A stretch of 64,000 nt of DNA from Spirochaetia bacterium (GCA_963666985.2 CAXXIA010000001.1:512001-576000), one strand, 5' to 3'; positions 6,266 through 20,241 are shown, counted from the stretch's first letter. A program made the numbers and translations. The notes: generated by a model from the letters alone, not told the origin.

Positions 6266-6711
6266 TGGCCGTTATCAGAGACGCCGAAATAAGTGATATC
6301 CCCGCCATGGCGGAACTTTTGGAAGAACTCTTCATGAAAGAGGCCGATTTTGTTCCGGACGGACAAAAGCAGGAACACGGATTGGCGTTGCTGCTGGAAT
6401 CCGATGCCGTCGTCCTCTGCGCCGACTCTTGCGGCGAGCTGGTGGGCATGGCGACGATGCAGTTTTCAGTATCCACCGCCGAAGGAGCGGTCGGCGGCCG
6501 GATTGAGGACGTGGTTGTCAAAAGGAATTTTCGCGGCGAGGGGATAGGGAAGCGTTTACTGGAAGAAATGATTTCACGAGCAAAAGCTTCGGGCTGCACT
6601 CGATTGCAGCTTGCGGCCGATGAGGAAAATATCCCGGCCCATGGATTCTATCGTCATTTGGGATGGGAAAGAACGAATCTTCGGCTATGGCATTTTTTTA
6701 CCGAACGATAA
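6265..6711 (+). CDS. GNAT-family N-acetyltransferase
   Basis: IEDVVV...FRGEGIGKRLL acetyl-CoA motif and N...AHGFYRHLGW. TAATG coupling. Confidence 0.93.
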   Translation: MAVIRDAEISDIPAMAELLEELFMKEADFVPDGQKQEHGLALLLESDAVVLCADSCGELVGMATMQFSVSTAEGAVGGRIEDVVVKRNFRGEGIGKRLLEEMISRAKASGCTRLQLAADEENIPAHGFYRHLGWERTNLRLWHFFTER

Positions 6712-7543
6712 ACGTTCTGTTTTCATGGACGAAAATGGATCGATTCAGATAGAGAAACAGAGCGTACACCAGGGTTCGGCGTTCCACGTCCTTGCCCATC
6801 TGAATCAGTTCCCGAATGGACGAGCGGTCGCTGACCGGCAGAACATTCTGCGCGATGATGGGGCCCTGATCCAAATCCTCATTGGCGAAATGAGCGGTGG
6901 CGCCGATAACCTTCACGCCTTTATACCAGGCCTGATGGTAGGGCTTGGCTCCTTTGAACGCAGGCAGAAATCCGTGATGGATGTTGATAACCCGGTTTTC
7001 CCAGGCACGGGTAAACTCAGCGGAGAGAATCTGCATGTATCGGGCCATTACGACAAGATCGATTCGGTATTCGCTCAAGATCTTCTGCATTCGATCTTCG
7101 GCTTTTTCCTTCCCTTCCGAATAATCGATTTGGTAAAAAGGAATGCCGAATTGTCCTGCCACAGGCTCGTTGATAAGGTGGTTCGATATAATCACGGGGA
7201 TTTCGCAGTCCAGCTCTCCGTCCCGATACTTCAGCAGCAGTTCCCACAGGCAGTGATTTGTTTTACTGACCAGAATGGCGACACGTTCTTTTTTATTCGT
7301 GTTGTACAGGCTCCATTCCATATTGAATTTTTCAGCCGTCGGAGCAAATGCGGCTTCGAATCCCTTGCGGTCGAAAGGGGCCGGAGCGTCGAATATGCCT
7401 TTGAGCATGAAAATACCGACATCCGAAGCGGTATGCTGGGTTAAATCCACGACGTTGGCGCCGTTTTCAGCAATGACTTGAGTAACGCAGGCAATGATGC
7501 CTTTCTGATCCGGGCAGGAAATCTTTATAATAAATCGGTCCAT
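6698..7543 (-). CDS. purU: Formyltetrahydrofolate deformylase
   Basis: ACT domain (SCPDQKGII), MARYMQILS, INIHHGFLPAFKGAKPYHQA, GATAHF and LDQGPIIAQ motifs. Confidence 0.97.
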   Translation of the reverse strand: MDRFIIKISCPDQKGIIACVTQVIAENGANVVDLTQHTASDVGIFMLKGIFDAPAPFDRKGFEAAFAPTAEKFNMEWSLYNTNKKERVAILVSKTNHCLWELLLKYRDGELDCEIPVIISNHLINEPVAGQFGIPFYQIDYSEGKEKAEDRMQKILSEYRIDLVVMARYMQILSAEFTRAWENRVINIHHGFLPAFKGAKPYHQAWYKGVKVIGATAHFANEDLDQGPIIAQNVLPVSDRSSIRELIQMGKDVERRTLVYALFLYLNRSIFVHENRTFIVR

Positions 7544-7544
7544 A

Positions 7545-8225
7545 TCAAACCTCCGAATGTTTTTCCCAGTGCTTATCCTTCACTTTCGCGACAAGAAGAC
7601 GCATGTTCAATCCCATCATCATCAGCGAGAGGACAAAGCTTCCGGTTACGACCGTCCAGGGATGTCCGCCCAGTGAAATGTTTTTCCAAATCGGAATGTC
7701 CATGGTTAAGTTCACGGTCAAAGTGAGAAAAGGAACCAGGAGAATGAAGAAAATCGGCGACCATTGCGTCAGCCAAAGGCCTTTATTGCGCATGAACAGA
7801 AGGGCCAGTCCGCCTCCGATGAGAACCGAAAGAAGAATCTCAAGAGGGATGAACCAGAGGGAGACAAAGAGCATTGTGGAAACGCCGCCGCCGCCTTTAA
7901 ATCGGTACCAGATGGGAAATATATGTCCCAGGACGGCGGCGATACCCATGGAGTAAAGAACTCCGTAATCAAAGGCCTGTTGTCCGTCGAAAAGAAATCG
8001 CTGAACGAAAAGGATGGGAATGATCGCTTTGAGTCCGTCGAGAATCATCACGAAAATACCCCAGCCGCGGCCTACGGTGCGCCCCATATTGGATGCTCCG
8101 GGATTTTTATTCCCCATGGTTCGTATGTCTTTTCCCGTAACGAGTTTCGTAAAGATGATGGCGAAATTGATACCGCCGATGAGGTATGCGGCAAGAATTA
8201 CGATCAAGGCTATGAGGATGGTCAT
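7545..8225 (-). CDS. plsY: Glycerol-3-phosphate acyltransferase (acyl-phosphate dependent)
   Basis: YLIGGI, DIRTMGNKNPGASN, DGLK and GHIFPIWYRFKGGGGVS motifs; membrane protein. Confidence 0.9.
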   Translation of the reverse strand: MTILIALIVILAAYLIGGINFAIIFTKLVTGKDIRTMGNKNPGASNMGRTVGRGWGIFVMILDGLKAIIPILFVQRFLFDGQQAFDYGVLYSMGIAAVLGHIFPIWYRFKGGGGVSTMLFVSLWFIPLEILLSVLIGGGLALLFMRNKGLWLTQWSPIFFILLVPFLTLTVNLTMDIPIWKNISLGGHPWTVVTGSFVLSLMMMGLNMRLLVAKVKDKHWEKHSEV

Positions 8226-8302
8226 GTTCTCTCCTTTCCGTGTTGGGAATCCGTCATTAAGAAAGCGGCGTATTATTGTTCGCGCCGGCGGGGTTGCCCG
8301 GA

Positions 8303-9892
8303 TTATTCCAGACTGATGATTAAGGCCGCCTTCGTCTGCCCTCCGAAATGATGCACGATTTCGGCCCCGGGCATGGCTTTACTCAGAACTTGAAGCACGG
8401 CTTCGAGATTTCTCGGATCAAATCCGTCGCCATGGTAAACGGCACAGTCGCTGAACTCATCCGTTTCCAGTTTTTTCAGCGCTTCGGATACGGCGAGGGA
8501 AGGAGATAACCCTTTTCCGAGGATTTCGTCCGAATGAGTGACGAACCAGTCGTTTTCTTCCAAATCCAATTCGCCGAATCGCGTATCCATGCCGCATTTA
8601 TAGACGAACAGTCCAACGGCATCATCAATGAAATCCATCATGGATTCCACGTTTTTTACCGCGGATTCTTCTTTGCTGAATCCGTAAGATGCGGTAATTC
8701 CCTGAATAACGCTTTTTGTCGGAACGATGGAAAGCGATTTGGAGGAATCGTTTTTTGCGGCAAGAACCGACGGGATGATGTTTGAGTTGTTCGGAAGAAC
8801 GATGACATGATCTTCTTCTATGTGTTCAAGAGCTTCAAGGATTTCTTCCGGAGAGGGAAGAACGTCTCCGTAAAGAAAGCAGTCCGTTATTTCCAAATCT
8901 TCAAAGATGCGTCCGAAACCTTCTCCCGGAATAAAAGAGAGTACGGCGCATTCGCCTTCATCACCGCTGCCGGCCGAAACCAAGCGGGTTTGTTCGTCCA
9001 TGTCGTCGACTTTCGTCCGTTCGAGGTATCCTGATGTTTTCAGCCGCTCAAAGACGGCTTCCGGTTCGTTCGTATGGATGTGAACTTTCAGCAAATCCTG
9101 TTCATCCACAAGGGCGATGCTGTCGCCCATGGAACCGAGCCATTCGGAGAGATCGGCATCTTTAGGCCCTTCGCGGCGAACGATCGCTTCGGTGCAGTAG
9201 CGGTAATGCGGGCGTTCTTCGGCACTGTTGGCCGAAGGATCGGGCTGGAAACGATAGTCGGCTTCTTCTTCCTCGACGGGAAGAGATCCGGTAAGTGCGG
9301 CGATCATGCCTCGAATAATAAAGAGAAGTCCGAGCGCGCCCGAGTCGATGACTCCGGCGCGCGCCAAGATGGGCAGTTGTTCCGGCGTTTTGAAAAGGGC
9401 CGCTGTTCCCGATTCTTCGGCGATTCTCAGAGCCTCAACCACATCATCGCCCGCGTAATCGGCAAGGGTTCGGCTTATCGCGGCGAGAATGCTGATCATG
9501 GTTCCTTCGGTCGGCGAGAAAAGGGCGCCGTTGACCGTATAGCTGCCGTTGGCGATGCCGGCCGCAAGATTTCTCGGAGTAAGAAACGCATCCTTCCCAA
9601 CGGCTTCGAAGAAACCGAAAAAGAATCGAGCCAGGATAAAGCCCGAATTCCCGCGGCTGCAGCGGTTGAGTTCGGCGACGAAATCCCGGCTCATTTCCGA
9701 AAGCGTTATTCCCTCGGCTTCTGTGAGATTTTCCACGCCCGCCGCAAGGGAAGATGTCATATTCCCGCCGGTATCTCCGTCGGGAACGGGAAACACATTA
9801 AGTCGGTCGAGCAGCTTGCGGTTCAGTTCCAGGTAGTCCAATCCGCCCCGTATGGCCGAGGCGAGCTGATCCGGCGACAGTTGTTTTACCAT
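8303..9892 (-). CDS. fakA: DAK2-domain fatty-acid kinase catalytic subunit (FakA/YloV-like)
   Basis: LNVFPVPDGDTGGNM, RGNSGFIL, GVIDSGALG, YCTE, KVHIHTNEP and LPNNSNI motifs. Confidence 0.92.
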   Translation of the reverse strand: MVKQLSPDQLASAIRGGLDYLELNRKLLDRLNVFPVPDGDTGGNMTSSLAAGVENLTEAEGITLSEMSRDFVAELNRCSRGNSGFILARFFFGFFEAVGKDAFLTPRNLAAGIANGSYTVNGALFSPTEGTMISILAAISRTLADYAGDDVVEALRIAEESGTAALFKTPEQLPILARAGVIDSGALGLLFIIRGMIAALTGSLPVEEEEADYRFQPDPSANSAEERPHYRYCTEAIVRREGPKDADLSEWLGSMGDSIALVDEQDLLKVHIHTNEPEAVFERLKTSGYLERTKVDDMDEQTRLVSAGSGDEGECAVLSFIPGEGFGRIFEDLEITDCFLYGDVLPSPEEILEALEHIEEDHVIVLPNNSNIIPSVLAAKNDSSKSLSIVPTKSVIQGITASYGFSKEESAVKNVESMMDFIDDAVGLFVYKCGMDTRFGELDLEENDWFVTHSDEILGKGLSPSLAVSEALKKLETDEFSDCAVYHGDGFDPRNLEAVLQVLSKAMPGAEIVHHFGGQTKAALIISLE

Positions 9893-10755
9893 TATTCATC
9901 CATAAGCATGTAGCCGAGTCCGAGATAGTCCGGGCCCGCATGGGGCAAATTGCTGTGGCTGCATCCGTAGAGAACCACGTCGACATCGCCTTCAAGCTTT
10001 TCAATTTCGAATTTGAGTTCTTGGGCTTCTTCTTGGTGAGGACCGTGAACGCTGATCAGCGCCTTCAAAGGTGCGTTCGGCCATAATTCGCGGTCCTGTT
10101 CGATGAAATCGATGAATCTCTTAACGGCCTGAATCGGTTTTTTTACTTTCCCGGCGGATTTCAAGTTGCCCGGGGGATCGGTGGCGCTCAGAAGGGGAAT
10201 GATTTTCATGGCCGAGCCCATAACCGCCTTGGCGGTTCCGATGCGGCCGGTCCGTTTGAGGTAGAAAAGGTCATAAACAAGACCGTGATGGCGTGTGCGA
10301 AGAGGAGCGGCTTTCAGAAAGGCATCCATTTCCTCTCGGGAGGCACCTGCCTTTATCCGCAGGGCGGCTTCTTTTACGATGATGCTGTAGCCTTCCACCA
10401 GATGACGCGAGTCGTAGTATGTAATGTCCAGTTCCGGATGTTCTTGAATGACTTTTGTTACAACTTGGGCTGTCGCCGATGAGGCCGTGGCGGACATATG
10501 AAGGGTAAGGATGGGTTCGTCGGGATGACGGCGATAGATTTCCAGAAGGTCTTCTTCCCGGAGACCTGACGTGGAAACGTTTCGGTTCTTGTCTTTTAAG
10601 ATCTTTCGGATTTCTTCCTTGGCCTCATCGCTCATGCCGGAATCCACATCAATGGGTTTTCCGTCGACATACATGGGGTAATTGCAGACCTCAACTCCCC
10701 ATTCGGCGAATTCAGCGGCCGGTATTTGTGCTGCCGTATCGGCTACCAATACCAT
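9892..10755 (-). CDS. fakB: DegV-family fatty-acid-binding protein (FakB-like)
   Basis: LVADTAA, STSG, YDS, DLFYLKRTGRIG, MKIIPLL and HAGP motifs. Overlaps the DAK2 start (TAATG). Confidence 0.9.
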   Translation of the reverse strand: MVLVADTAAQIPAAEFAEWGVEVCNYPMYVDGKPIDVDSGMSDEAKEEIRKILKDKNRNVSTSGLREEDLLEIYRRHPDEPILTLHMSATASSATAQVVTKVIQEHPELDITYYDSRHLVEGYSIIVKEAALRIKAGASREEMDAFLKAAPLRTRHHGLVYDLFYLKRTGRIGTAKAVMGSAMKIIPLLSATDPPGNLKSAGKVKKPIQAVKRFIDFIEQDRELWPNAPLKALISVHGPHQEEAQELKFEIEKLEGDVDVVLYGCSHSNLPHAGPDYLGLGYMLMDE

Positions 10756-10766
10756 TGAATACCTCC

Positions 10767-12023
10767 TTATTCTTTGCGGCGTGCCGGTTTCTCCGGCATT
10801 TCAACGATTATATCTGTTCTCGCTTTGGCGATACAGGGGTGAAAATACCCCAATTCCTTATCTCTCCGTCTGACTCCCGCAGGTTCCGAAATATAGTCCA
10901 CATCTCCTTGAACAAGAAGACTCCGGCACCAGCCGCAGGTTCCCGTACGGCAGAAGGAGGGAGGATTCAGACCGGCCCGTTCCATGGCCACAAGAACCGT
11001 TTCGCCCGGATCGGCCGGAATCGTTATCTCCGAACGGCCGGGGATTCGAACGGTGAGTTTTTTCGCGGCTTCTTCCGTTCGTTTCCCCGATTGACCGTAA
11101 TCTTCCCGCCGTATGCGGCGGGGTTTGTTTTTCAGGGATGCAATTTCTTTATTCAGGTGGGTATGCATGGCCTCGGGACCGCAGATAAAAAAAGTCGCTT
11201 CTTTTTCTTCCATGGCATCGGCCAAAATGTCTGCGGTAATAAAGCCCCGGCGGCAGGATTGTTCGGCGTTCGGATTTTCGGATCGGCCGGAATCTTGCGG
11301 AGAGGGGGGAGCGTAACGGTTTTCCGAAAGAACGCAAATCCTTCCGAACCGATCGGAGTGAATTTTTTCCCATTGACGGAAATCTGCATCAAAAAGAAGT
11401 TCTTCCGAGGTTCTGGAACCCTGTATGAGAACGATGTGAACATCACTTTCCGTATCGTCCAGTAAATCGCCGATGATGGAACGAAACGGTGTCACACCGG
11501 ATCCGCCCGCAATACATATAAGAAGTGGAGAGTCCCGAAGCGGCTCGTAAGTGAAAAATCCCTGAGGCGCCGATGTTTTTACGGAAGTACCGACAGTCCA
11601 CTCCCGTCCTATGAGGCCGGCGATGAAAGGGCTTTCGTCCGTTCTTACGGTAATTCGATAAGCGTTTTCTTTTTCCGACTCGTTCGGTGTACCGCTGAGA
11701 GAGTAGGGCCGGCTTATTCCATGTCCGTCGTGTGTGTCCACTTCCACGGAAAGATACTGACCTGCCCGGAACGGCGCCGGTTCCGTGTCGTCGTGCGCCG
11801 GTTTCAGAACATAGGTTCTGGTTGAAGGACTTTCTTTTCGAATCTCCGCGATAACGAGATTTTGCGATAACGGATGGAGTGCCTGAGCCAAAGAATTGAT
11901 GCAGCATTCCGTCGGTTTGGTTTTCGGAGCACGCCGCATCCTTCGACGCCGTTCGGTTATTGGAGCGATGAATCGTAAAAGATCTCTCAGCGGACCGCGT
12001 TTAATAATGATGGAGTTGCTCAT
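10767..12023 (-). CDS. FAD/NAD(P)-binding oxidoreductase with C-terminal [2Fe-2S] ferredoxin (PaaE/Hcr/Rv3230c-like)
   Basis: FRAGQY, RPYSLS, AGGSGVTPF, ICGP and CRTGTCGWC...C motifs. Confidence 0.92.
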   Translation of the reverse strand: MSNSIIIKRGPLRDLLRFIAPITERRRRMRRAPKTKPTECCINSLAQALHPLSQNLVIAEIRKESPSTRTYVLKPAHDDTEPAPFRAGQYLSVEVDTHDGHGISRPYSLSGTPNESEKENAYRITVRTDESPFIAGLIGREWTVGTSVKTSAPQGFFTYEPLRDSPLLICIAGGSGVTPFRSIIGDLLDDTESDVHIVLIQGSRTSEELLFDADFRQWEKIHSDRFGRICVLSENRYAPPSPQDSGRSENPNAEQSCRRGFITADILADAMEEKEATFFICGPEAMHTHLNKEIASLKNKPRRIRREDYGQSGKRTEEAAKKLTVRIPGRSEITIPADPGETVLVAMERAGLNPPSFCRTGTCGWCRSLLVQGDVDYISEPAGVRRRDKELGYFHPCIAKARTDIIVEMPEKPARRKE

Positions 12024-13522
12024 CGGTTCATATCCGCCATCGTTTTTTCCGCCGCATTCCTGCCTGAGTTTAAGGCGCTTCCGTATCCGTGCGCGATGGA
12101 TGCGTTCCCGCCGCAGAAGCGGAGATTTTTATAGAAGCGTTCCCGGTTTCTTGAAAGAACACGAGGGACAATCCCGTCCCACGGCTCGGCCTCATACCCG
12201 TAAACCGTTCCGTCCCATGATCCGACATAGCGGGAAAATGTCGGAGGCGCCGCGGTTTCAATTTCTTCGATTCGCCCTCGAATTTTAACGCCGACGGCCC
12301 GTTCAAATTGATTTATCGCCAGTTCGGCGAAACGCCTTTTTTCTCTGTTGTATGTTTTTGATGTAACATCCGACCATGCTTCGGGCCGCGTTCCAAGGGT
12401 AAGAGACAGAATCGTGGTTCCCGGAGGCGAGGCCTTGGGATCGGCCGCGTTTAAACAAACCGAAGCCTGCAGAGGATTGGGATCGTGCCGGTTTAAAAAC
12501 TTCGCTTCAAGTTCCGGTGTGTTCATATGCGGCGCGATGAAATAGGAATAATCGGTCAGCCCGATTTTTTCTCTATCGGCATCCAGGCCAAGATAGACCA
12601 CGAAGAAGCTCAGTCCGTTGCGCCGTGCGTTCGCGACTTTATAGACCTTTTGCGGAGCATGTTTATTATTATTGAAGTTGGCGAAAATCCGATGAGGAAG
12701 GATGTTCGAAACAACCCGTCCGCAATGAACGGATTCGCCTCCGGCAAGAGTAACCCCCGTGATGTTCCTGCCTGATGTTTCAATGCCCGTAACTTCCGTA
12801 TTAAATCGGATTTCTCCGCCTTCGGCGCGGATGGCGGAAACAAGAGATGCCGCCATTCCATGCGATCTTGAACGGGGAATAACGGCGCCGTAATACAGAT
12901 AGGAATAGACCATGGAGGCCCATAGTGAAAAGGACACTCTGTTTGTAGGCACCCCGAGATAACACCAATACGGGTAAATCAAATCCCTGGCCTCGGGACT
13001 TAAGCCTATCTCGTCCGCGACTTCATCGGTAACGGCTCCGCCCGTACGGAGAAAATTTCCAAAATCGCCGAAAATTTTCTTTACCGACGGACGAGGATTT
13101 TTCCGGAGATATTCGAAGGCCTCAAAGGTTTCGGCGCAGACCGCCATGAAATCGCGGATTTCTTTTTCTCCGTATCCGATGTGCTCCGAAACGGCGTGCG
13201 TGAAAGCCTCAGGACCGAACGGAGCTCTGAAATCTGTTTTCTTGTCCGTCAGAAGAAGACGATAGGCTTCCGGAACCGGCAGGAATTCGAGACTTTTATC
13301 AACCTCTTTAAGAAAATCAACTATGGGGGAATTCGCCATTTCATGAAGAGATGTTTCAAATTCAAAACGGCCCCTGATAAAGGATGTCGCGAAGCCCCCC
13401 GCTAGATTATGACGTTCCAATACAAGAACTTTTATTCCGGCTTTGGCCAAATCGTAAGCGGCCGTAAGTCCGCCGAGTCCGGCGCCGATCACAATCACTT
13501 CCGGTGATACTCTGCTTTTCAT
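12020..13522 (-). CDS. CrtI/phytoene-desaturase/retinol-saturase-like FAD-dependent oxidoreductase
   Basis: IGAGLGGL...LERHNLAGG, FEFETSLHE, FVVYLGLD, APPTFSRY and NLRFCGG motifs. The ATG at 13522 follows GGAGAG (the ORF track starts it at 13537). Confidence 0.88.
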   Translation of the reverse strand: MKSRVSPEVIVIGAGLGGLTAAYDLAKAGIKVLVLERHNLAGGFATSFIRGRFEFETSLHEMANSPIVDFLKEVDKSLEFLPVPEAYRLLLTDKKTDFRAPFGPEAFTHAVSEHIGYGEKEIRDFMAVCAETFEAFEYLRKNPRPSVKKIFGDFGNFLRTGGAVTDEVADEIGLSPEARDLIYPYWCYLGVPTNRVSFSLWASMVYSYLYYGAVIPRSRSHGMAASLVSAIRAEGGEIRFNTEVTGIETSGRNITGVTLAGGESVHCGRVVSNILPHRIFANFNNNKHAPQKVYKVANARRNGLSFFVVYLGLDADREKIGLTDYSYFIAPHMNTPELEAKFLNRHDPNPLQASVCLNAADPKASPPGTTILSLTLGTRPEAWSDVTSKTYNREKRRFAELAINQFERAVGVKIRGRIEEIETAAPPTFSRYVGSWDGTVYGYEAEPWDGIVPRVLSRNRERFYKNLRFCGGNASIAHGYGSALNSGRNAAEKTMADMNR

Positions 13523-13692
13523 CAGCTCTCCGAGCATTGAAGTCCGTCTTTTATTCGGGAAACTCCCCTCAAGTGCAACCAGTATAGTCAGTTCCGCCTG
13601 ATTTGTGATACAAATTACTTAAAAATGTCCGGGAAAAAGTATTTTGTAAGTGCTAATCACGGATTACGATAGAAAAAAAACGATTAAGACGA

Positions 13693-14628
13693 TTGCGTTA
13701 TATTGATATAATCGATCCATCGCGGAGCCAACCTGTGTTTTATAGACGAAAGGATGCGAAGCTCATTAAGGGCCAGAGCATGATCAATCGTATGTTTCCT
13801 TACATGATGAGAGATAAAATCGGATCTCAAGTCTATGTCCCTCTGAAACTCAACCTTGATAATGCGGCGGAATACATCCGTGAAAAAGCCGAAAAACATG
13901 GACGGCATGATTTCAGCTATTTCGACATTCTTGTCGCGGCCGTTATGAGAGCCATTGCTGAGAAACCCGAGCTGAACCGATTTATTAAAGGACGCCGGTA
14001 TTATCAGCGGCGCAGCCTCAGCGCGACTTTTATCGTAAAGAAAAACCTCACCGAAGAAGATGAAGAGCGTCAGGCCATCATAACCTTCGATCCGGCCGAT
14101 ACTTTGGATGAATATTCGGAGAAACTTCGCGCGGCAATTGCCGCCATGCGGAGCAAACCCGAGGACGAGGGCGAGAAGATTATGAAAGTTCTTTTCGCTT
14201 TGCCGTCTAAAATAATCGACTTGTTTACTCTGTGGCTGATGAGGCTTGACGACCGCGGAATGATGCCTCGATATCTCGCCGAGTCCGACGGTATGCATAC
14301 CAGCATATACATTGCCAATCTGGGCAGTATCGGTTTTGAAGATGCGCCGTTCCATCATTTGTATGAATGGGGCACGGGCTCCGTTTTTCTTACTTTCGGC
14401 CGACTCCATCGGGAAAGGTCGTTCAGCAAAGACGGGACGGAGAAAGTACACTTGGTTATCAGAGCCGGTGTAACCATTGATGAACGAATCGGCGAGGGGC
14501 TCTATTTTTCAAAAGCCATACGGCTTTTCAAAAAATACGTTGAGAATCCCAGACTCCTTGAAGAGTGGCCCGATCTTCCGGCTCTGTGGGAGAAGATGAA
14601 AGAGCCGGGAAAAACAATTCGCATCTGA
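13693..14628 (+). CDS. Stand-alone 2-oxoacid-dehydrogenase E2-like (CAT-fold) acyltransferase domain protein
   Basis: PELNRFI, IANLGSIG...FHHLYEWG and TIDERIGEG (canonical DHR replaced by DER). No lipoyl domain. Confidence 0.8.
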   Translation: MRYIDIIDPSRSQPVFYRRKDAKLIKGQSMINRMFPYMMRDKIGSQVYVPLKLNLDNAAEYIREKAEKHGRHDFSYFDILVAAVMRAIAEKPELNRFIKGRRYYQRRSLSATFIVKKNLTEEDEERQAIITFDPADTLDEYSEKLRAAIAAMRSKPEDEGEKIMKVLFALPSKIIDLFTLWLMRLDDRGMMPRYLAESDGMHTSIYIANLGSIGFEDAPFHHLYEWGTGSVFLTFGRLHRERSFSKDGTEKVHLVIRAGVTIDERIGEGLYFSKAIRLFKKYVENPRLLEEWPDLPALWEKMKEPGKTIRI

Positions 14629-14786: not shown

Positions 14787-15920
14787 TTAAGCGATGGCCA
14801 GACCCGTATCGAGTTCCAAATCATCCGGGAGCCATTCGGCAACTTCGGAAAGAGGCCGCATAAAGACGGTTCCCGTCTGTTCGATATATTTGGCATCATG
14901 GATCTTAAAAATGATCCGGCTGTCCGCAAGTCCGACGATCTCAATCTTACCGATTGGATGACTCATGACGTACTTAAAACGCTTGGCCATTCCCGAAAGG
15001 TGACGTTTGGCCTCTTCGATGATTCCGATACCTTCGGCAATAGGTATTTGGAAACTCTTTTGAACCCGTTTTACAGGCCTGCATTGAAACACGTAATACG
15101 GCGCGATTCCCGCGGAGACAAGATCGTTCATCAAGTCGGCCATAACGTCCGGATCGTCGTTGATGCCTTTGAGCAGGACCGTTTGGCAGCTTACCGCCAC
15201 TCCCGCTAAGCTCAACCGGCGCACAGCTTCAATCGTTTCCGAAACAATTTCTTTGGGATGATTAATATGAGTCACAACATAAATTCGCGGCTTTGAGGGA
15301 TCGCTGTTATGGCGTGCAAAAATATCCAGGAGTTTTTTATCATCCAGTATGCGTTTGGGAAGAGATGTCGGTGTTTTCGTTCCGAATCGGATAAAGCGGA
15401 TATGCTGAATTTTTGAGATTTTCCGTAGAAAAGATTCGATGATATCCGTGGAAAGCATCAATGAATCACCGCCGGTGATAAGAATATTGTTGATCTCCCG
15501 ATGCGCGGCGATATAATCCAGCGCGTCGTCGAAATTGCACAAAACCTCGGCGTTGGTGAGTCCTACCATCCTCTTTCGGAAGCAGTATCGGCAATAAATG
15601 GCACAAATATTCGTCGATAAGAGCAGCACCGTCGGTTCATATTTATGCTGAAGTCCCTTGGCTTTTGTGTTCTCGGCCTCACCGCTGGTATCGTAATCAC
15701 CCGAAAGATCGAGTTCCTCAATGTTCGGCAAGTACATTCTTCGGATCGGATCGTTCGGGTCGTCGGAATCCATCAGATCCATGACATGCCGAGTTACACG
15801 GATCGGATGAATCTTGGCAATCTCATTCAGCTGCAGCTTTTCTTTCTCCGTGAGATTGACGTATTCGCTCATTTCCTCGACTGTTGTAACCGTGTGGCAT
15901 AGGATATTTTTCCAGGACAT
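14787..15920 (-). CDS. KamA-family radical-SAM/PLP aminomutase
   Basis: GLQHKYEP, CAIYCRYCFRKR (CxxxCxxC), LITGGDSL, QTVLLKGINDD, PYYVFQC and GKIEI motifs. Confidence 0.93.
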   Translation of the reverse strand: MSWKNILCHTVTTVEEMSEYVNLTEKEKLQLNEIAKIHPIRVTRHVMDLMDSDDPNDPIRRMYLPNIEELDLSGDYDTSGEAENTKAKGLQHKYEPTVLLLSTNICAIYCRYCFRKRMVGLTNAEVLCNFDDALDYIAAHREINNILITGGDSLMLSTDIIESFLRKISKIQHIRFIRFGTKTPTSLPKRILDDKKLLDIFARHNSDPSKPRIYVVTHINHPKEIVSETIEAVRRLSLAGVAVSCQTVLLKGINDDPDVMADLMNDLVSAGIAPYYVFQCRPVKRVQKSFQIPIAEGIGIIEEAKRHLSGMAKRFKYVMSHPIGKIEIVGLADSRIIFKIHDAKYIEQTGTVFMRPLSEVAEWLPDDLELDTGLAIA

Positions 15921-17372: not shown

Positions 17373-18962
17373 ATGGATGCGGTGAAGATTATCGAAAACG
17401 GACAAGCCATCATGGGGATGGAGCTTGGTTCCACGAGAATAAAAGCCGTCTTAATCGGACCGGACAACAGTCCCTTGGCATCCGGAGGACACGGATGGGA
17501 AAATTCCCGAATTGATGAAATCTGGACCTATCCGCTGGAAGAAGTTCTCTCCGGTATCGCCGCCGCCTACGCGGATTTGAAGAATGATGTTCAAAAAAAG
17601 TATGGAATCAATCTGAGATCCTTCGCGGCCGGTGGATTCAGCGCCATGATGCACGGATATCTTCCTTTTAACGCATCGAATGAACTTATCGCTCCTTTTA
17701 GAACCTGGCGAAACAATATAACCGGACAAGCCGCGAAGGAATTGACCGATTTACTTCATTATCCGGTCCCGCAGCGATGGAGCATTGCACATCTTCATCA
17801 AGCCGTTCTCAACGGAGAAGATCATGTCGGCGAGATTGCGTATCTGACAACTCTCGCCGGTTATGTCCATTGGAAATTGACCGGGAAAAAGGCATTAGGC
17901 GCCGGAGATGCCTCCGGAATGTTCCCCATCGACAGTGATACGCTTGTTTTCGATCCGAAACGCCTTGAGAAATATGATGCCCACATCGCCGATAAAGGAT
18001 TCGGATGGAAACTCGGTGATCTTCTTCCCGAAATCGTACCCGTTGGAGAGGAAGCGGGAAGGCTGACCGAAGAAGGCGCGCGTCTTTTGGATCCTTCCGG
18101 AGATCTTGTGGCGGGAATCCCCATTTGTCCTCCCGAAGGTGATGCCGGAACGGGAATGGTGGCCACGAACAGCGTTCGTGTTCGAACCGGAAACGTTTCG
18201 GCCGGAACCTCCGTTTTTGCCATGCTCGTCATGGAAAAAGAACCCTCGAAGGTTCATGATGAAATCGATCTGGTAACCACGCCCGACGGGAAACTTGTCG
18301 GGATGGCGCATTCCAACAACTGCACTTCGGATTATGATGCCTGGATCAATCTGTTCGGTCGGGCCGCTCGGGCTATGGGGGCCGAGTTTACCACTCCCGA
18401 ACTCTATGACACACTTCTGGAACTTGCTTTGAAGGGAGATCGGGACTGCGGAGGTCTTCTGGCCTACGGGTATGTATCCGGCGAACACCTCACCGGATTC
18501 GGCGAGGGACGTCCGCTTTTCGTCCGGCATCCGGAGAGTCCGCTGACTTTGGAAAACTTCATCAGGACGCATCTTTTCACATCATTATGCGCATTACGCA
18601 CCGGACTGAACGTTCTCATGGAAGAAGAAGGCGTTAAGGTTGATGAAATCCGGGGGCACGGAGGCTTCTTTAAAACCGCCCGCGTCGGTCAACGAATTAT
18701 GGCGGCGGCAACAGGAACGCCGGTGAGCCTTTTGGAAACCGCGGGTGAAGGCGGTGCCTGGGGCATGGCGCTTCTGGCATCGTATATGCTTCGTGAGAAA
18801 CGGGAGCTGAGTCTTCCCGATTTTCTGGACGATGCGCTTTCCGGCGGGGTGGGAGAAGCCATGAAGCCCGATCCTGATGATGTCGCCGGTTTTGAGGCCT
18901 TTTTCAAGCGCTACCATAAGGGGCTGCCCATCGAATCGGCGGCCGTGGAATCGCTCAGCTAA
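17373..18962 (+). CDS. araB: L-ribulokinase (FGGY family)
   Basis: GMELGSTRIKAVL, SAMMHGY, FRTWRN, PQRWSIAHL, PEGDAGTGMVATN and GEGGAWG motifs. Lies next to araD and araA. Confidence 0.9.
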   Translation: MDAVKIIENGQAIMGMELGSTRIKAVLIGPDNSPLASGGHGWENSRIDEIWTYPLEEVLSGIAAAYADLKNDVQKKYGINLRSFAAGGFSAMMHGYLPFNASNELIAPFRTWRNNITGQAAKELTDLLHYPVPQRWSIAHLHQAVLNGEDHVGEIAYLTTLAGYVHWKLTGKKALGAGDASGMFPIDSDTLVFDPKRLEKYDAHIADKGFGWKLGDLLPEIVPVGEEAGRLTEEGARLLDPSGDLVAGIPICPPEGDAGTGMVATNSVRVRTGNVSAGTSVFAMLVMEKEPSKVHDEIDLVTTPDGKLVGMAHSNNCTSDYDAWINLFGRAARAMGAEFTTPELYDTLLELALKGDRDCGGLLAYGYVSGEHLTGFGEGRPLFVRHPESPLTLENFIRTHLFTSLCALRTGLNVLMEEEGVKVDEIRGHGGFFKTARVGQRIMAAATGTPVSLLETAGEGGAWGMALLASYMLREKRELSLPDFLDDALSGGVGEAMKPDPDDVAGFEAFFKRYHKGLPIESAAVESLS

Positions 18963-18987
18963 GCGCGGACCGGGCGGAAAGAGGCAT

Positions 18988-20241
18988 ATGGCGACCCTGA
19001 AGGACATTGCGGATCGGGCCGGTGTCTCCATAGGCACCGTGGATCGGATTATTCACGACCGGGGACGGTATTCCAAAGAAACCGCCGAGAAGGTTCGGCG
19101 GATTTTGGAAGAAACCGACTACAGGCCCAATGTCATGGCCCGGCATCTTTCCAAATCCGGTACATGCAGGCTCGCCGCTCTGATTCCCGAATCCGGCCAA
19201 GACAGCGGGTACTGGGCCGTACCTCTCAACGGCATGCGTTTGGCCGAAAAGGAACTCGAACCTTTCGGATTGAGCCTTGAAGTGATTTTTTTTGACCGGT
19301 TTCGAAAGAACGGCCTTATCGACGCGGGAGGCACTCTGATCGGCCGGAATGATATCGACGGGCTTCTGATGGCTCCCATGAGACCGGATGAGGCGGAAGA
19401 TCTGCTGGAAAGGCTTCATTCGAAAATCCCGGTTGTGTGCTTTGATACCGATCTTCCGGGAACGAAGCGTATGAGCTATATCGGCCAGGATTCCTATAAA
19501 AGCGGACATCTGGGAGCGCGGCTCACGATGATGAGCGCCCGCAGCGCCCGCAGCGAAAACGGCGCAAACAGCATTCACAGCATCCGCAGCGCCCGCAGCG
19601 AAAACGGCGCAAACAGCATCCACAGCGCCTGCAGTGCCCGCAGCGAAAACGGCACAAACAGCATCCATAGCGCGATCGGCGATCCCCGCGGGCCGAGCGG
19701 GAAACAAGAAAGAAGCGGGAAAAGCGTAAAACCTGACGAACCTACAACCGTCCCAACCCCCCCGGCGAAATATCTGGTTGTCGCACCGATGGACGACAAC
19801 GTGCATCTTGAAAAGCGGCGGCGCGGATTCATCGATGGCGTAAACAATATCGGCGGCAGCTCTGAAGTGCTGCGGATTACCGTGGAGTCGGACGGCGATA
19901 CCGCCAATTTTTACAAACTCCTGGATGAACATATTACATCGGAAACGGCCGGTATTTTCGTTGTGAACGCCTCAACACACTTTATCGCCGAGTATCTGAA
20001 TGAGCGAAATCTGTGCATCGCGCTAGTCGGTTACGACCTGGTTCCTGAAAACAAGAAATGGCTGGAGAAGGGCTTAATCGATTTTCTACTCACCCAGAGA
20101 CCGGTACAGCAGGGGTATCGGGCCGTTCGCTACCTTTTTCGGAAAATCGTGATGGGCGAGGATTGCCCGGACCATGAATACACGCCCATCGACATCGTGG
20201 CGCGTGAAAACCTGGAATACCTGGACGAGGAGAATCAATGA
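18988..20241 (+). CDS. LacI-family regulator with an internal tandem-repeat insertion
   Basis: TLKDIADRAGVSIGTVDRIIHDRG HTH and a periplasmic-binding-protein domain (YIGQDSYKSG, LVGYDL, QRPVQQGY). RBS GAGG precedes ATG 18988. Confidence 0.93.
   Translation: MATLKDIADRAGVSIGTVDRIIHDRGRYSKETAEKVRRILEETDYRPNVMARHLSKSGTCRLAALIPESGQDSGYWAVPLNGMRLAEKELEPFGLSLEVIFFDRFRKNGLIDAGGTLIGRNDIDGLLMAPMRPDEAEDLLERLHSKIPVVCFDTDLPGTKRMSYIGQDSYKSGHLGARLTMMSARSARSENGANSIHSIRSARSENGANSIHSACSARSENGTNSIHSAIGDPRGPSGKQERSGKSVKPDEPTTVPTPPAKYLVVAPMDDNVHLEKRRRGFIDGVNNIGGSSEVLRITVESDGDTANFYKLLDEHITSETAGIFVVNASTHFIAEYLNERNLCIALVGYDLVPENKKWLEKGLIDFLLTQRPVQQGYRAVRYLFRKIVMGEDCPDHEYTPIDIVARENLEYLDEENQ
19534..19668 (+). repeat. 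Three 45-bp in-frame tandem repeats built from 9-bp subunits
   Basis: AGCGCCCGC AGCGCCCGC AGCGAAAAC GGCGCAAAC AGCATTCAC occurs three times with few substitutions and encodes S-x-x-SARSENG(A/T)NSIH. Confidence 0.95.

Follow-up and report, generated by a model that had tools for sequence, protein, structure and literature searches.

A spirochaete operon joins a CrtI-fold flavoprotein and its FNR-[2Fe-2S] partner to fatty-acid kinase proteins and a PlsY-like protein with a replaced acceptor site: a candidate route for anaerobic fatty-acid editing

A window of 64,000 nucleotides (nt) from a Spirochaetia bacterium (GCA_963666985.2 CAXXIA010000001.1:512001-576000) contains an operon in which a flavoprotein of the COG1233 type and an FNR-[2Fe-2S] protein are followed by fatty-acid kinase (Fak) genes and a divergent plsY, termed plsY* here. 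In its working the system resembles a Fak salvage route to which a COG1233 flavoenzyme has been added together with an electron chain of its own. We tentatively favour a five-gene accessory route which would hydrogenate a scavenged fatty acid, phosphorylate it and transfer the acyl group to an acceptor other than glycerol 3-phosphate (G3P). An earlier reading of the window, made from the sequence alone (the sequence-only reading), had described six genes. Their families, assigned with Pfam and NCBIfam models, and positions were borne out, as were the junctions: in transcription order, the first two genes overlap by 4 nt (ATGA), the next junction is a gap of 11 nt, the third an overlap of 1 nt (TAATG), and the last two are gaps of 77 nt and 1 nt. 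All six open reading frames (ORFs) are on the minus strand.

12020..13522, minus strand: CrtI/CrtD-fold (COG1233-type) flavoprotein, 500 aa, Pfam PF01593, putative catalytic subunit of the redox pair
10767..12023, minus strand: FNR-[2Fe-2S] protein, Pfam PF00970, PF00175 and PF00111
9892..10755, minus strand: DegV/FakB fatty-acid-binding protein of an operon-associated clade, over the TIGR00762 cut-off
8303..9892, minus strand: DAK2, three-domain FakA-type fatty-acid kinase (DAK2, M and C domains), Pfam PF02734, PF21645 and PF13684
7545..8225, minus strand: PlsY*, PlsY-fold acyltransferase with replaced G3P clamp, 98 bits against the TIGR00023 cut-off of 137
6698..7543, minus strand: PurU formyltetrahydrofolate deformylase, over the TIGR00655 cut-off, sole purU match in the genome
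13581..13609, minus strand: possible, weak sigma-70 promoter upstream of the operon, 9/12 consensus match, a kind of site that occurred at chance level in the scan (7 sites against 7.8 expected from shuffles)

Within the limits of their contigs, 21 further spirochaete-type locus records showed the collinear order oxidoreductase-FNR-degV-dak2-plsY (12 were complete; the records include near duplicates or pieces of single genomes). The operon was conserved down to about 40-50% identity. This demonstrated a linkage beyond chance, and the neighbourhood search thus spared the sequence-only reading from what it had named as its own refutation, a linkage without conservation in other genomes. In a quick tree the DegV-linked flavoproteins formed one clade (Shimodaira-Hasegawa-like approximate likelihood ratio test, SH-aLRT, 99); therefore the operon is of single origin. 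The inclusion of purU did not stand. Of ten other loci with flanks of 1 kb or more, one has it after plsY, and there past a 607-nt gap. Accordingly, purU is a local addition outside the conserved unit and was rejected as a member of the pathway. Given the 1-nt gap, it is probably co-transcribed with plsY in the window. The operon-type DegV is rare; a sample of 401 genomes from all over the phylum contained it in 3, one of them the window genome.

Some related loci deviated from this layout. Two related spirochaete genomes carry the operon-type DegV alone (L203:8932-9792, L204:8779-9693), and neither shows a redox pair in the 18 kb retrieved. At L038:8190-9110 short fragments of flavoprotein and DAK2 genes lie side by side, probably a deleted operon, and a PlsY*-type gene stands as an orphan on a separate contig of that genome (L291:8274-9026). 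At L126 and L288 no more than a few kb separate the operon from the housekeeping genes for DAK2-DegV and PlsY.

The predicted structure of the flavoprotein (predicted local distance difference test, pLDDT, 87) has a CrtI-type fold. The best match was the carotenoid desaturase 4REP (Z 33.2, root-mean-square deviation, rmsd, 3.3, 457 residues aligned); the next structural match had a Z of 27.3, and the Foldseek TM-score was 0.78. Identity to CrtI-fold structures was 15-20% in structural alignments, and every curated Crt-family cut-off was missed: 103 against 238 for TIGR02734 (crtI_fam), 102 against 587 for TIGR02730 (carot_isom) and at most 90 bits against cut-offs of at least 500 for the CrtD models. 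No phytoene/squalene synthase (PF00494, crtB) was found in the window genome, which is estimated to be 93% complete; crtE was outside that search. Phytoene synthase was present in one of five other operon-bearing genomes. A carotenoid role is thus disfavoured, and the remark of the sequence-only reading that a carotenoid context is missing holds as far as crtB is concerned. The operon has one flavoprotein gene and not two paralogous subunits; tandem copies occur in some other lineages. GGAGAG lies shortly before the start at 13522, and the resulting 500 aa equal the length of the nearest homologue; an alternative in-frame ATG at 13537 would give 505 aa. The named close homologues are Spirochaetaceae. 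One Atlas cluster was automatically named RetSat with a score of 0.99, which we take as a lead only.

The FNR protein consists of a family-specific N-terminal extension, an FNR-type domain for flavin adenine dinucleotide (FAD) and the reduced nicotinamide nucleotide, NAD(P)H, and a C-terminal plant-type [2Fe-2S] domain, the four Cys of which are invariant (43 rows). A profile from 41 aligned flavoproteins was used to collect 79 genome and 79 metagenome loci, the best-scoring of about 600 confirmed stretches listed per scan. Among these best 158 loci the FNR gene was adjacent in 134 and fused in 4, i.e. it was retained in all 138 evaluable loci; the other 20 end within 600 nt. In a further 51 loci it was present in 50, the sole exception being the most divergent. 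A fusion at L253 has the opposite order to the other fusions. The loci are not independent: 200 collapse to 52 clusters at 65% identity. The pair is found in spirochaetes, Syntrophaceae, Clostridia, lactobacilli and Asgard archaea with a patchy distribution (8/301 Lactobacillaceae and 18/399 Clostridia genomes); 43 of 301 genomes of the Syntrophaceae phylum carry the family, a count which takes in more distant sister clades. More than 2,500 protein clusters of the flavoprotein family were among those scored, and the named homologues include culturable lactobacilli, Natronincola and Oceanispirochaeta.

The joint structure prediction agreed with this pairing. The model of the flavoprotein-FNR complex scored 0.88, the best of three controls 0.00; the mark set for this score was reached by 116 of 157 solved pairs and by 2 of 215 mismatched pairs. 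The runs agreed in at least 88% of contacts and the partner pLDDT was at least 83. In the predicted interface FNR residues 5-50 and 355-393, parts of the conserved N-terminal extension and of the [2Fe-2S] domain, face flavoprotein residues 47-54 and 221-225. The two redox proteins are thus predicted to form a complex in which the [2Fe-2S] domain faces the flavin-side loop and the N-terminal extension is docked on the flavoprotein. Judged by adjacency and by fusions in both orders, together with the complex model, flavoprotein and FNR are a dedicated pair, as the sequence-only reading had supposed. Its analogy with Rv3230c, taken there as an electron donor for lipid desaturases, refers to what is reportedly the electron partner of an O2-dependent desaturase, and no member of that desaturase family (PF00487) was found in the 93% complete window genome.

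FNR subunits at L229:5485-7245 and L230:8121-10058 have a hydrophobic C-terminal extension of about 190 aa with no Pfam match there, which suggests membrane anchoring. In Asgard loci (L059, L066-L069, L176 and related ones) genes for a glycyl-radical enzyme (about 990 aa) and its activase are often found next to the pair in divergent orientation, a neighbourhood that may be lineage synteny.

The fatty-acid kinase proteins retain their functional residues. In DegV, T62, S92, R171 and H272 were invariant in all 14 rows and correspond to the carboxylate-site residues T61/S93/R170/H264 of FakB2 (PMC10848957). The DAK2 protein retains the nucleotide and zinc motifs PVPDGDTG, RGNSG, xCTE and HIH in 15/15 rows, i.e. 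it has the ATP-binding motifs, the zinc Cys/His-x-His and the DegV-like C domain expected of FakA, and it matched PDB 7w7h with an E of 1e-59. No residue of the window DAK2 aligns with the fourth zinc ligand, which in S. suis is His226. The protein scored 374 bits against the YloV model (cut-off 396) and 230 against the FakA equivalog (cut-off 975). With their motifs intact the operon Fak proteins look functional, and the FakA/FakB assignment of the sequence-only reading can be kept.

The model of PlsY* has the PlsY fold (Z 22.6 and rmsd 2.3 over 191 aligned residues of 5XJ5). In PlsY the G3P pocket is formed by Ser35, Arg45, Lys104, Asn180, Ser142 and His177, which are called 'highly invariable', and the specificity constant of the Aquifex enzyme falls 63-fold in K104A, 429-fold in H177N and 409-fold in N180A (PMC5700162). 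Among 76 database homologues of PlsY*, the Lys104 column contained Gly in 73 and the Ser35 column Asn in 69; the His177 column was Asn in 74 of 74 complete rows with no aligned His. Motif 3 contains a single Asn, and whether it replaces His177 or Asn180 depends on the register. Hence, of Ser35, Arg45, Lys104, Asn180 and His177, Arg45 alone is clearly kept. The acyl-phosphate site, to which His92, Thr41, Asn37 and the glycine loop belong, is retained, with His92 in 76/76 and Asn37 in 73/76; the Thr41 column was Ser in 54 and Ala in 20 homologues. The operon rows had Gly at 104 in 14/14 and lacked the motif-3 His in 13/13 complete sequences, whereas 24 non-operon PlsY rows had Lys or Arg at 104 in 23 and the His in 19. 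A second PlsY match was present in 8 of 10 genomes with PlsY*. Because the residues of the G3P clamp are lost across the clade and the acyl-phosphate site is kept, we infer that PlsY* is an enzyme which uses acyl-phosphate with an acceptor other than G3P.

FNR-[2Fe-2S] proteins normally pass electrons from NAD(P)H to a partner, and with NAD+ as acceptor the desaturation of an unactivated chain is uphill. In anaerobes, a protein that feeds NAD(P)H electrons into a [2Fe-2S] cluster favours reduction, the direction which we assume. The two-protein flavoenzyme would hydrogenate a conjugated or allylic C=C bond of a scavenged fatty acid without oxygen, electrons running from NAD(P)H via FAD and the [2Fe-2S] cluster to the flavin of the CrtI-fold subunit and on to the C=C bond. 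The dedicated FakB/FakA pair would phosphorylate the edited acid, and PlsY* would pass the acyl group to an unphosphorylated acceptor, presumably an alcohol such as monoacylglycerol, a glycolipid hydroxyl or a long-chain alcohol. Alternatively, the acyl-phosphate might reach phospholipid via the housekeeping PlsY. In a bolder form the pair would be an undescribed, widespread anaerobic fatty-acid biohydrogenase and the spirochaete PlsY* would acylate a non-G3P acceptor or run backwards and release acyl-phosphate from an ester; this we consider conceivable but on the whole unlikely.

That the substrate is a fatty acid we infer from the company the pair keeps, including its constant position in the Fak operon. 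In Syntrophaceae-type loci it is surrounded by beta-oxidation clusters (acyl-CoA ligases, hydratases, dehydrogenases, a thioesterase-like and an old-yellow-enzyme gene), and acyl-CoA ligase, dehydrogenase or hydratase genes adjoin it in Syntrophaceae and other loci. In a clostridial genome (L232) a canonical plsY overlaps the FNR gene; YhhN is near the pair in L170 and a lipid kinase at another locus. Within the 52 clusters DegV is adjacent in 8, all of one clade, and another lipid or acyl-CoA gene in another 8; an old-yellow-enzyme gene alone was seen in 1 and a GntR gene alone in 7.

Several observations weigh against the proposed hydrogenation route. In 28 of the 52 clusters none of about 18 screened neighbour families was present. 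Lipid genes adjoined 15 of 100 sides; at control points at a distance of 5 kb the figure was 4 of 66. About half of those 15 sides belong to one spirochaete clade, so that a clear enrichment is not seen outside it. The organisms in which beta-oxidation genes are neighbours carry many such genes in any case. At L217:2169-10314 (clostridial) the pair closes, 3 nt after a dehydrogenase gene, what we take from our own reading of the sequences and Pfam matches to be a myo-inositol catabolic (iol) operon. The high complex score is to be expected from the natural flavoprotein-FNR fusions. In PlsY*, Arg45 is kept in 74/76 homologues and a clade-specific His188, present in 73/76, might rebuild a G3P site. 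Finally, relatives with a similar architecture or a flavin-linked His, the limonene dehydrogenase CtmAB (PMC4109377) and the steroid delta24-desaturase (delta24-SD), oxidise their substrates, and the anoxic reduction of an isolated, unactivated double bond is described as difficult (PMC11061730).

Part of this evidence would suit a pair whose substrate is not a fatty acid but, for example, phytol or another isoprenoid or terpenoid alcohol, a fragment of an ether lipid, or a small polar molecule. Such a pair would have only a loose connection to the Fak genes, or would supply them with a product after further steps. The clusters without screened neighbours, the inositol locus, a glycerol kinase context at L214 and a stand-alone GntR-oxidoreductase-FNR cassette in the lactobacilli (the 8 of 301 genomes) are in line with this, and the characterised CrtI-fold relatives which we found all act on isoprenoids or steroids. 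Against it stand the fixed order with degV-fakA-plsY in the 21 records, the translational coupling in the window and the separate links to plsY and to beta-oxidation clusters, and we regard it as doubtful. L214 and L217 also brought up a role as a dehydrogenase of G3P or dihydroxyacetone phosphate (DHAP) or as an acyl-DHAP reductase, which is comprised in the same explanation; the PlsY* changes also remove phosphate-binding residues. A link to the conversion of cholesterol to coprostanol, prompted by many matches in Acutalibacteraceae, found no support in the accessible part of PMC13079761.

Next, the flavoprotein could be a cis-trans or positional isomerase like CRTISO, the FNR-[2Fe-2S] protein merely keeping its flavin reduced. 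CRTISO depends on FAD in its reduced form, and with FADred CrtI acts as an isomerase under anaerobic conditions (PMC3382138). The carotenoid isomerase model scored about as well as crtI_fam, and homologues are often labelled 'prolycopene isomerase' in the source records. However, retention of the reductase in every evaluable locus among the best 158 and its fusion in both orders suggest a stoichiometric demand for electrons, which renders an isomerase improbable.

A slightly poorer case can be made for an oxidative pair, an oxygen-free desaturase or an allylic hydroxylase, in which the reductase would remove electrons or activate the flavin. The COG1233 enzyme CtmAB depends on the ferredoxin CtmE and is encoded in one cluster with the reductase CtmF (PMC4109377), and no O2-dependent desaturase was found in the window genome. 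His60 of the flavoprotein, located beside the flavin-binding loop, is invariant in 52/52 rows and may be equivalent to the flavin-linked His of CtmAB and delta24-SD: the family motif E-F-E-(P/T)-S-L-H-E, with its invariant F-x-x-S-L-H60, partly resembles the covalent-flavin motif G-F-L/R-X-N/S-T/L-H-A (4 of 7 specified positions match, in one register). In our alignment to CrtI, however, His60 is two positions off the CtmAB His. The carriers include fermenters and syntrophs, and NAD+ is a poor acceptor for alkyl desaturation.

The least probable explanation is that of the sequence-only reading, in which the edited chain enters phospholipid via the operon's own PlsY as a normal G3P acyltransferase: the PlsY fold, the retained Arg45, Asn37 and His92, the residual activity of Aquifex H177A and K104A mutants (PMC5700162) and the fact that PlsX had no match in six genomes (G000, the window genome, and the related G011, G013, G018, G1451 and G1452), so that Fak may supply acyl-phosphate, would fit, but the joint replacement of several G3P-pocket residues across the clade, the sharp difference to the non-operon rows and the canonical plsY in the same genome make it doubtful.

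For the favoured reductive route the closest characterised architecture is the CtmAB cluster of Castellaniella defragrans (PMC4109377), which like the operon keeps a flavoprotein and a [2Fe-2S]/NADH-reductase chain together. CtmAB and the delta24-desaturase (PMC11061730) are oxygen-independent COG1233-type flavoproteins with a His in the flavin-side loop, as here. CtmAB differs in that it combines two flavoproteins in a heterodimer, has its ferredoxin and its reductase as separate proteins, oxidises terpenes and belongs to a denitrifier (PMC4109377), whereas the operon has one flavoprotein and one FNR-[2Fe-2S] polypeptide and is linked to Fak and PlsY; the likeness described here is one of architecture. 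With CrtI/CrtD (PDB 4DGK, 4REP) and CRTISO the flavoprotein shares the fold, the dinucleotide-binding motif and presumably C=C chemistry on hydrophobic substrates; it differs in the low identity, the missed curated cut-offs and the absence of a detectable crtB. Retinol saturase, RetSat, belongs to the same group by fold and C=C chemistry. To our knowledge no dedicated FNR-[2Fe-2S] partner exists for CrtI/CrtD, CRTISO or RetSat.

The staphylococcal and streptococcal Fak-PlsY systems share the three-domain FakA, the Thr/Ser/Arg/His of FakB and the acyl-phosphate site of PlsY (PMC10848957, PMC5700162). In contrast, the operon is an accessory second set which is linked to a redox pair, has a DegV of a separate clade and a PlsY without the G3P clamp. 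In anammox bacteria the CrtI homologues kuste3336 and kuste3607 are located in lipid clusters, lack phytoene activity and were proposed to edit acyl chains (PMC4790861). They differ in that their clusters are ladderane clusters of type II fatty-acid synthesis (FASII) and radical S-adenosylmethionine (SAM) genes, and their function is still unproven. Our literature search returned no description of the redox pair or of the operon (subscription papers were mostly outside the search) and no paper on PlsY paralogues with a replaced acceptor site.

Which enzymes carry out specific biohydrogenation reactions is still poorly resolved (2026 review, PMC13464031). If the reductive route is correct, the pair is a candidate for poorly resolved reductive steps in the fat metabolism of gut, rumen and digester. 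The spirochaete operon provides a direct clue to the substrate which the stand-alone copies lack, i.e. a dedicated fatty-acid-binding protein. A PlsY* with a non-G3P acceptor or with a reverse reaction would constitute a new lipid pathway, and a PlsY with replaced acceptor site would broaden the known chemistry of acyl-phosphate donors.

The window genome also carries a DAK2-DegV fusion close to the second, canonical plsY, as well as FASII-type genes and nine PlsC-type matches. There was no sign that the operon is a recent horizontal island (gene GC content 0.49-0.53 against 0.51 in the genome), and a plasmid search gave no match.

Divergent from the operon, a plus-strand gene at 13693-14628 encodes a stand-alone domain like the acyltransferase (E2) of 2-oxoacid dehydrogenases. 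The genome has a paralogue of it, which overlaps what is probably a gene for an acyl-CoA ligase (L040:8564-11187). The gene was rejected as a member of the operon since it adjoins none of the fetched flavoprotein loci. At 14787-15920 on the minus strand follows a KamA-family radical SAM protein, which is under every aminomutase cut-off and has a second paralogue just beyond the window. A LacI-type regulator (18877-20241, plus strand) contains an insertion in which a peptide of about 15 residues is present in three copies; it belongs to an arabinose-like cluster, the gene names of which we assume from the translations. Elsewhere in the genome (L040:6255-7037) a 187-nt unit occurs in four tandem copies, visible as near-identical short ORFs.

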